A DNA stretch of 64,000 nt from Escherichia phage Ec_Makalu_002, in sequence record MN709127.1; one strand, written 5' to 3'. The notes under the pieces were generated by a model. The model saw only the letters and a list, made by a program, of their open reading frames with translations, made no database searches and was not told the DNA's origin. Position 1 is the first letter of the stretch; each line of letters begins with the position of its first letter. Shown here one piece after another: positions 21,329 through 21,745 of this stretch. A program made the position numbers and the translations under genes.

Positions 21329-21745
21329 TTAGAGAGATTCGGTAAAGGTACGCGCGATCACGTCACGCTGCTGGTCTGGAGTCAGACTATTGAAGCGCAC
21401 TGCATAACCAGAAACGCGAATTGTAAGCTGCGGGTACTTCTCAGGATGTTCAACCGCGTCAAGCAACATTTCTCGTAACAATACGTTAACATTTAGGTGT
21501 TGGCCTCCTTCGACAACCGGAGCACCATTATCTACAACAACCGGACGGAAGCTAGTTGTGTGCAGTTCCAGCGAATCGACGTCTTCTGCGGTGATCACAT
21601 GATCTTCTGCGAAAGTTTTACTAACAATTACTTTAGCGCCGATCAGTGCTTTCGGTTCGGATACCAGAATCATAGGCGCGAAGTGTCCACCGATAATAGT
21701 ACCTTTATGCTCACCTTTCATGATTTGAATTGCTTTAAATTCCAT
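21329..21745 (-). CDS. grcA: autonomous glycyl radical cofactor (GrcA/YfiD) homolog
   Basis: 138 aa; C-terminal ~60 aa [12 protein letters not shown]...[35 protein letters not shown] nearly identical to E. coli GrcA as recalled; N-terminus divergent. Confidence 0.8.

Follow-up and report, generated by a model that had tools for sequence, protein, structure and literature searches.

A Krischvirus ortholog of T4 vs.6 encodes a GrcA/YfiD-type glycyl radical protein that has long resided in its phage lineage

The window analysed in this study, a stretch of 64,000 nucleotides from Escherichia phage Ec_Makalu_002 (MN709127.1), carries on its minus strand an ORF for a 138-aa protein that starts with ATG, and its translation was exactly the one quoted in the first-pass annotation (Table 1). 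The protein is a stand-alone product, as the gene possesses its own ATG, ribosome-binding site, stop codon and terminator, and the phage genes on either side are unrelated to it. A ribosome-binding site and a terminator are annotated at the equivalent positions in Ec_Makalu_003. The vs.8 homolog and the 41-aa ORF that precede the gene (21756..22366 on the minus strand as a pair, in which PHROG 1488 and PHROG 13848 were matched) are probably co-transcribed with it. The 41-aa ORF, which sits in place of T4 vs.7, is conserved in Phi1 (ORF100), Ec_Makalu_003 and JK32, and bears no substitution relative to Phi1. The nrdC.11-like neighbour downstream matched Pfam RlaP, an RNA repair pathway DNA polymerase beta family nucleotidyltransferase; the nrdC.11 start annotated in Phi1 falls on an internal ATG at position 21242 of the window.

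Table 1. Positions of the features discussed in the text, in the window unless a compared locus is named.
Feature	Position	Strand	Basis or remark
CDS, ortholog of T4 vs.6 (Y06I), GrcA/YfiD-type	21329..21745	-	ORF, Pfam, NCBIfam and PHROG 1209
N-terminal phage-type module, residues 1-76	21518..21745	-	alignments
C-terminal glycyl-radical module, residues 77-138, mimic of PflB residues 698-759	21332..21517	-	sequence, phmmer and Foldseek
RVSGY motif, residues 110-114	21404..21418	-	sequence and alignments
Gly113 codon GGT, predicted radical site	21407..21409	-	equivalent to GrcA G102 and PflB G734
Shine-Dalgarno sequence AAGAGGTG	21750..21757	-	4 nt upstream of the ATG; overlaps the stop codon of the upstream 41-aa ORF
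Intrinsic-terminator-like hairpin, 10-bp stem and T-run	21296..21320	-	9 nt past the stop codon of the window vs.6
41-aa ORF (MKNKDSVARRFRATIKKNRKVQPDKLYGVLVGKVNDERPDL) between vs.8 and vs.6	21756..21881	-	PHROG 13848, E 1e-30
vs.8 homolog, upstream and co-directional	21881..22366	-	PHROG match
nrdC.11-like neighbour, downstream	20544..21275	-	Pfam RlaP, E 2.7e-14
NrdD	2206..4068	-	Pfam NRDD, E 1.9e-175
ORFs of 180 and 183 aa between nrdD and nrdG	995..2100	-	Phi1 ORF055 and ORF054; no Pfam match
NrdG	274..783	-	TIGR02491, 166 bits against a cutoff of 126
T4 vs.6, compared locus	9558-9920		
E. coli grcA, compared locus	4067-4450		

Searches with the protein placed its C-terminal part in the glycyl radical family. 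The Pfam model Gly_radical (PF01228) matched residues 78-119 with 61 bits against a cutoff of 22 (E 1.6e-16), a match far beyond chance. The best match in NCBIfam was TIGR04365, GrcA, with 135.2 bits, and the best match in PDB was YfiD (6owr, E 1.5e-33), aligned with residues 37-138. By phmmer, residues 77-138 were aligned with chain residues 698-759 of PFL (1cm5/1h16) at E about 5e-27, and a Foldseek search against PDB matched the C-terminal module to both 6owr and PFL. Within the C-terminal 62 residues, 56 (90%) are identical to those of E. coli K-12 GrcA, 54 to those of T4 Vs.6, and 50 (81%) to the C-terminus of E. coli PflB. Three of the six residues that differ from GrcA (M93, L95 and E99) are those found in PflB. 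In the family alignment, the invariant residues of the radical module, including G113, are all retained in the window protein. The first-pass annotation was thus right to call this a phage-encoded protein of the GrcA/YfiD type with a GrcA-like C-terminus of ~60 residues, and the RVSGY motif that it reported is present on retranslation.

The window protein bears the sequence-level defining features of GrcA-type proteins except one: its score lies below the equivalog cutoff of TIGR04365, which is 170 bits. The corresponding scores are 151.1 bits for T4 Vs.6 and 234 bits for E. coli GrcA. As the biochemically validated T4 Vs.6 is also under the cutoff, the shortfall reflects the phage-type N-terminal module. 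TIGR04365 was trained on bacterial N-termini, and hence a missed cutoff says little about function; we discounted it as an argument against membership in the family.

The window genome belongs to Krischvirus, in the RB49/Phi1/GEC-3S group of T4-like Straboviridae, and the gene is the Krischvirus syntenic ortholog of T4 vs.6 (Y06I). In T4, the genes are arranged in the order vs.8-vs.7-vs.6, the last of which (NP_049730.1, 120 aa) is annotated as GrcA; in both the window and Phi1, the order is vs.8, the 41-aa ORF, vs.6 and nrdC.11. PHROG 1209 covers the window protein over its full length (profile positions 1-121 of 121, E 2.7e-51). At the nucleotide level, the gene is 98.3% identical to its counterparts in Ec_Makalu_003, where it is labelled 'autonomous glycyl radical cofactor', and in the Shigella phages SSG23 and SFHK24, and 95.9-96.9% identical to those in GEC-3S, RB49, Phi1 and others. 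The protein of SSG23 is 100% identical to the window protein. In several records, the depositors call the gene 'autonomous glycyl radical cofactor', and in Phi1 it carries the name 'vs.6'. By tblastn, homologs were detected in 1,580 phage records, spanning Tequatrovirus, Mosigvirus, Jiaodavirus, Slopekvirus-like Klebsiella phages and Pseudotevenvirus, as well as T5-like Demerecviridae, Schizotequatrovirus of Vibrio and jumbo phages, and a search of 5.8 billion proteins recovered 7,732 relatives of the window protein. The gene is therefore already known, being annotated in relatives and characterised as its ortholog in T4, with the protein sequence already public; the first-pass annotation had missed this.

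The N-terminal ~76 residues are strongly unlike E. coli GrcA (pN 0.53), in agreement with the difference that the first-pass annotation had noted over ~75 residues. A reading of this divergent N-terminus as a novelty did not survive comparison with other phages. The motifs KA[IY]QIxxGxHKGTI and ARxIVSKTFxED are common to the 138-aa Krischvirus-type and the 120-aa T4-type proteins, and bacterial GrcAs carry ITGIQITKA...NSFWLLD..EARC in their place. Judged by these alignments, the N-terminus is a module of the phage lineage shared with T4 Vs.6, and no oddity of one gene. The window protein additionally possesses a segment of ~12-16 residues, at about residues 18-33, which T4 Vs.6 lacks. Since this segment aligns, albeit loosely, with SFWLLDSEK of bacterial GrcA, T4 may perhaps have undergone a deletion, rather than the window protein an insertion.

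Purifying selection acts on both halves of the gene. For the N-half, pN/pS was 0.011/0.073 in comparison with Phi1 and 0.048/0.215 in comparison with JK32, a ratio of about 0.15-0.22 within Krischvirus. The AlphaFold2 model, built from an alignment of 83 sequences (mean pLDDT 80.7, pTM 0.47), places strands at residues 4-8, 17-20, 38-41 and 66-69 and a helix at residues 53-59 of the N-half, with low confidence over residues 21-30. Foldseek found no structural match for the N-half in PDB; the KOW-like/ribosomal matches had E above 0.5 and were ignored. The N-half of the window protein is thus predicted to be partly ordered, whereas that of YfiD is disordered. As the two N-halves differ in sequence to the extent given above and the phage one is predicted to be partly ordered, binding or regulation by the window protein could differ from that by YfiD. 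We consider this contrast, between a conserved phage-type N-terminus under selection and the disordered N-terminus of YfiD, to be a point of interest in the present protein.

What the protein does can be approached from its two best-studied relatives. YfiD and T4 Y06I are the only two biochemically validated spare parts of PFL (Wagner et al. 2001, pmid 11444864, as cited in PMC8683613). In the account of that work given in PMC8683613, PFL-AE puts a glycyl radical on YfiD or Y06I, and the activated protein forms a complex with O2-cleaved PFL, by which activity is restored. Efficient activation of YfiD takes place only with cleaved PFL present, and complex formation depends on YfiD residues 1-60 as well as on cPFL residues 696-733. 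YfiD's N-terminal half, though disordered, is required for both the binding of cleaved PFL and efficient installation of the radical. In vivo, a strain carrying PflB G734A regains formate production through GrcA, and the radical takes the route from GrcA G102 to PflB C419 (PMC12338860, from which the residue numbers G102 and G734 are also taken).

Given the orthology and the conserved radical module, the window protein is very probably a phage GrcA/YfiD-type spare part that would work by the same mechanism as YfiD and Y06I, with Gly113 as the radical site. Under micro-oxic conditions, O2 would cleave the active host PflB at the glycyl radical of G734. The window protein would bind the cleaved PflB, with a contribution of its N-terminal half to the binding, and the C-terminal module would replace the damaged radical domain that it resembles. 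Host PflA (PFL activase) would install a radical on Gly113, which would in turn abstract H from Cys419 of PflB. Pyruvate would then be turned into acetyl-CoA and formate again, and fermentative energy and carbon flow would be kept during the infection of a facultative anaerobe. The activation by PflA, the rescue of PflB and the benefit to the phage (acetyl-CoA, formate and ATP under oxygen exposure) are what we infer by analogy with YfiD and Y06I; no phenotype of a phage vs.6 knockout was found in the searchable literature. If this is the case, the gene would matter in general as an auxiliary metabolic gene by which host fermentation goes on under fluctuating oxygen, as in the gut. A phage GrcA (T4 Y06I/Vs.6) was already known and validated biochemically in 2001, and the window gene adds little in this respect.

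One might alternatively regard the window protein as a decoy or modulator, which would compete for PflA or for PflB (or TdcE), whether cleaved or intact, and thereby redirect or stop host fermentation, the N-terminal module altering its behaviour. Such a role would be in line with an N-half strongly unlike that of bacterial GrcA and with some order predicted for it in the AlphaFold2 model, as binding and activation are controlled by the N-half in YfiD. Nevertheless, we consider the decoy improbable, as (i) T4 Y06I, which has the same type of N-terminal module, restored PFL activity in vitro according to PMC8683613, (ii) the invariant residues of the radical module are all kept, G113 included, and (iii) the PflB-mimicking module is under extreme purifying selection, as suits a catalytic insert that works. 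The first-pass annotation had named host PflB or the phage's own NrdD as the protein to be protected. PflB is the likely client on the precedent of T4 Y06I, and only this part of the proposal stands. A spare part or protector for NrdD, activated by the phage NrdG, is very hard to reconcile with the data and was rejected: both proteins are indeed encoded in the window, about 17-21 kb away, and spare parts for other glycyl radical enzymes have been speculated upon in PMC8683613, but BLASTP of the window protein against the window NrdD revealed only the five residues RVSGY in common (E about 1-2), the C-terminal module is 81% identical to PflB 698-759, the gene is adjacent to neither nrdD nor nrdG, and PFL and PFL-AE are the partners of the T4 ortholog in the account of PMC8683613. 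Unlike in T4, nrdD and nrdG of the window are separated by two ORFs (Table 1); Phi1 annotates a small ORF053 as well.

The first-pass annotation had further read the near-identity of the C-terminal module to the host protein as a sign of its recent capture from host grcA. Besides the 90% amino-acid identity to E. coli GrcA, two observations would favour this view: the C-half, with a GC3 of 47.5%, somewhat exceeds the phage mean (35.4 +/- 6.7), and such a capture is real in T4, in which the C-half is 96-97% identical to E. coli grcA at the nucleotide level. The nucleotide sequence of the window gene, compared over its last 62 codons or its C-half, tells otherwise. The C-half is 73.7% identical to E. 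coli grcA, and 72.6% identical to both E. coli pflB and T4 vs.6. Only 27 of the 62 third positions match between the window gene and grcA, 32 of the 56 codons for conserved residues differ, and the Nei-Gojobori estimates were 0.75 for pS, which is saturated, and 0.09 for pN. In 5,426 complete E. coli genomes, the best blastn match was 74.6% over 185 nt, to pflB, and no locus covered 80% of the window gene. On this result, together with the divergence at the codon level, we rejected a recent capture from E. coli. Our bacterial scan covered 100,044 species genomes and yielded at least 593 confirmed relatives, the best 80 of which were compared: among these 80 loci, grcA of Superficieibacter was the most similar with 77.6% identity (30 of 61 third positions) and the median was 71.3%, so within this sample another bacterium as the recent source was rejected as well. 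A transfer from another phage genus fared no better, as blastn with the C-half detected no phage outside Krischvirus above 78%. Against Phi1, pS of the C-half was 0.26, which indicates that the C-half diverged within Krischvirus. The vs.8-vs.6 position of the gene is conserved and common with T4.

The comparison of codon usage, which the first-pass annotation had suggested as a test of capture, turned out not to be diagnostic. In the log-likelihood ratio of the phage model to the E. coli model, the N-half scored 0.01 and the C-half 0.04, against means of 0.23 +/- 0.15 for phage and -0.25 for E. coli in reference chunks of 61 codons. Both halves thus have equal and intermediate values, in the lower tail of the phage chunks and well above the E. 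coli chunks, with an E. coli model made from 7 genes; the equality of the two halves counts against a recently captured C-terminal module. The raised GC3 of the C-half could at best be a faint vestige of an old host origin. The window vs.6 is therefore long resident in the phage lineage and not a recent acquisition from the host, and we hold the contrary view to be extremely unlikely. The best explanation for the near-identity at the protein level is very strong purifying selection: the module must fit the active site of host PflB and be recognised by host PflA, so that it can stay nearly identical to the host protein without recent transfer.

A gene conversion from pflB, which could be read from the PflB-like REMLLDAVE of the window protein, was not supported either. 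LLDAVEH is also found in GrcAs of other Enterobacterales, and the nucleotide identity to pflB is no more than the 72.6% given above.

The 3' module has a different history in some related phages. T4 vs.6 is a mosaic, in which the 3' half has a nucleotide identity to E. coli grcA of 95.7% when 62 codons are compared and of 97.3% when 61 are, with 59 matching third positions and pS of 0.07, and the 5' half has reached saturation (pS 0.70). The EGGQH codons mark the breakpoint, GC3 moves from 18.6% to 41.0%, and the identity of the 3' half falls with host phylogeny, to 93.4% in E. albertii and 91.3% in Citrobacter. The low pS of this tract, the jump in GC3 and the declining identity suggest that the 3' half of T4 vs.6 arose from a recent gene conversion by host grcA; recent capture thus appears to be true of the 3' half in T4. 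In the grcA homolog of Klebsiella phage KpV477 (locus 121-483), GC3 goes from 23.7% in the N-terminal part to 59.0% in the C-half, which is 85.8% identical at the nucleotide level to enterobacterial grcA in a sample without K. pneumoniae, and its 3' module looks like another host-derived one. The C-half of RB43 is 82.5% identical to enterobacterial grcA at the nucleotide level. The copies in T5-like, Vibrio and jumbo phages gave no host-like signal.

Within Krischvirus itself, we noticed two alleles of the 3' module. The window and JK32 are 93-100% identical from 22400 to about 21561, 62-67% identical across 21560..21321, and 85-100% identical past about 21265, and pS between them is 0.81 in the C-half and 0.11-0.15 in the flanking genes. 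At that junction, JK32 (locus 1965-2558) and FL04 (locus 637-988) carry a ~600-bp gene for an endonuclease with NUMOD4 and HNH_3, inserted between vs.6/grcA and nrdC.11; the equivalent position in the window, at about 21265..21286, is without the gene. JK32 and FL04 have probably experienced an allele replacement linked to the homing endonuclease, with the window carrying the endonuclease-free allele. The divergent allele of ~230 nt directly abuts the HNH gene, which suggests that the endonuclease targets the conserved coding sequence of the radical domain. It is attractive, if rather speculative, to see in the 3' radical module of vs.6/grcA a recombination hot spot that has been overwritten repeatedly while the phage 5' module stayed. 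The HNH endonuclease would target the sequence coding for the radical domain, the divergent allele would be its cleavage-immune, co-converted flank, and the window would hold the old endonuclease-free allele; we lean slightly against this scenario as a whole. In the searchable literature, we found no description of such overwriting of the 3' module, a weak sign of its novelty. This turnover in related phages is the only part of the present results that is possibly new, and it could give a small evolutionary story.

Among the known systems, E. coli GrcA (YfiD, P68066; PDB 6OWR) resembles the window protein in being a stand-alone protein of ~14 kDa with the RVSGY glycine and in the C-terminal 62 residues, 90% identical between the two. 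It differs in its N-terminal half, which is barely alignable (pN 0.53), and the window protein is phage-encoded with other codon usage. Residues 698-759 of E. coli PflB (PDB 1H16, 2PFL) are thought to be the structure that the window protein would replace; 50 of 62 residues are identical, and REMLLDAxE of the window protein is PflB-like at three positions that differ from GrcA. PflB is, however, an enzyme of 760 aa, and the window protein is its radical module without the rest of the enzyme. T4 Vs.6 has in common with the window protein the N-terminal motifs, the radical module (54/62), the vs.8 neighbourhood and PHROG 1209. The overall identity is nevertheless 58%, the window protein is 18 aa longer than the 120 aa of T4 Vs.6, and the 3' half of T4 vs.6 is 96-97% identical to E. 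coli grcA at the nucleotide level, whereas that of the window gene is 74% identical. The GrcA-like proteins of T5-like, Schizotequatrovirus, Pseudotevenvirus and jumbo phages (DT57C, PVA23, RB43 and Serratia phage BF, among others) have the same architecture and radical module as the window protein, with 62-74% nucleotide identity in the C-half, but the N-terminal modules differ in the T5-like and Vibrio phages.
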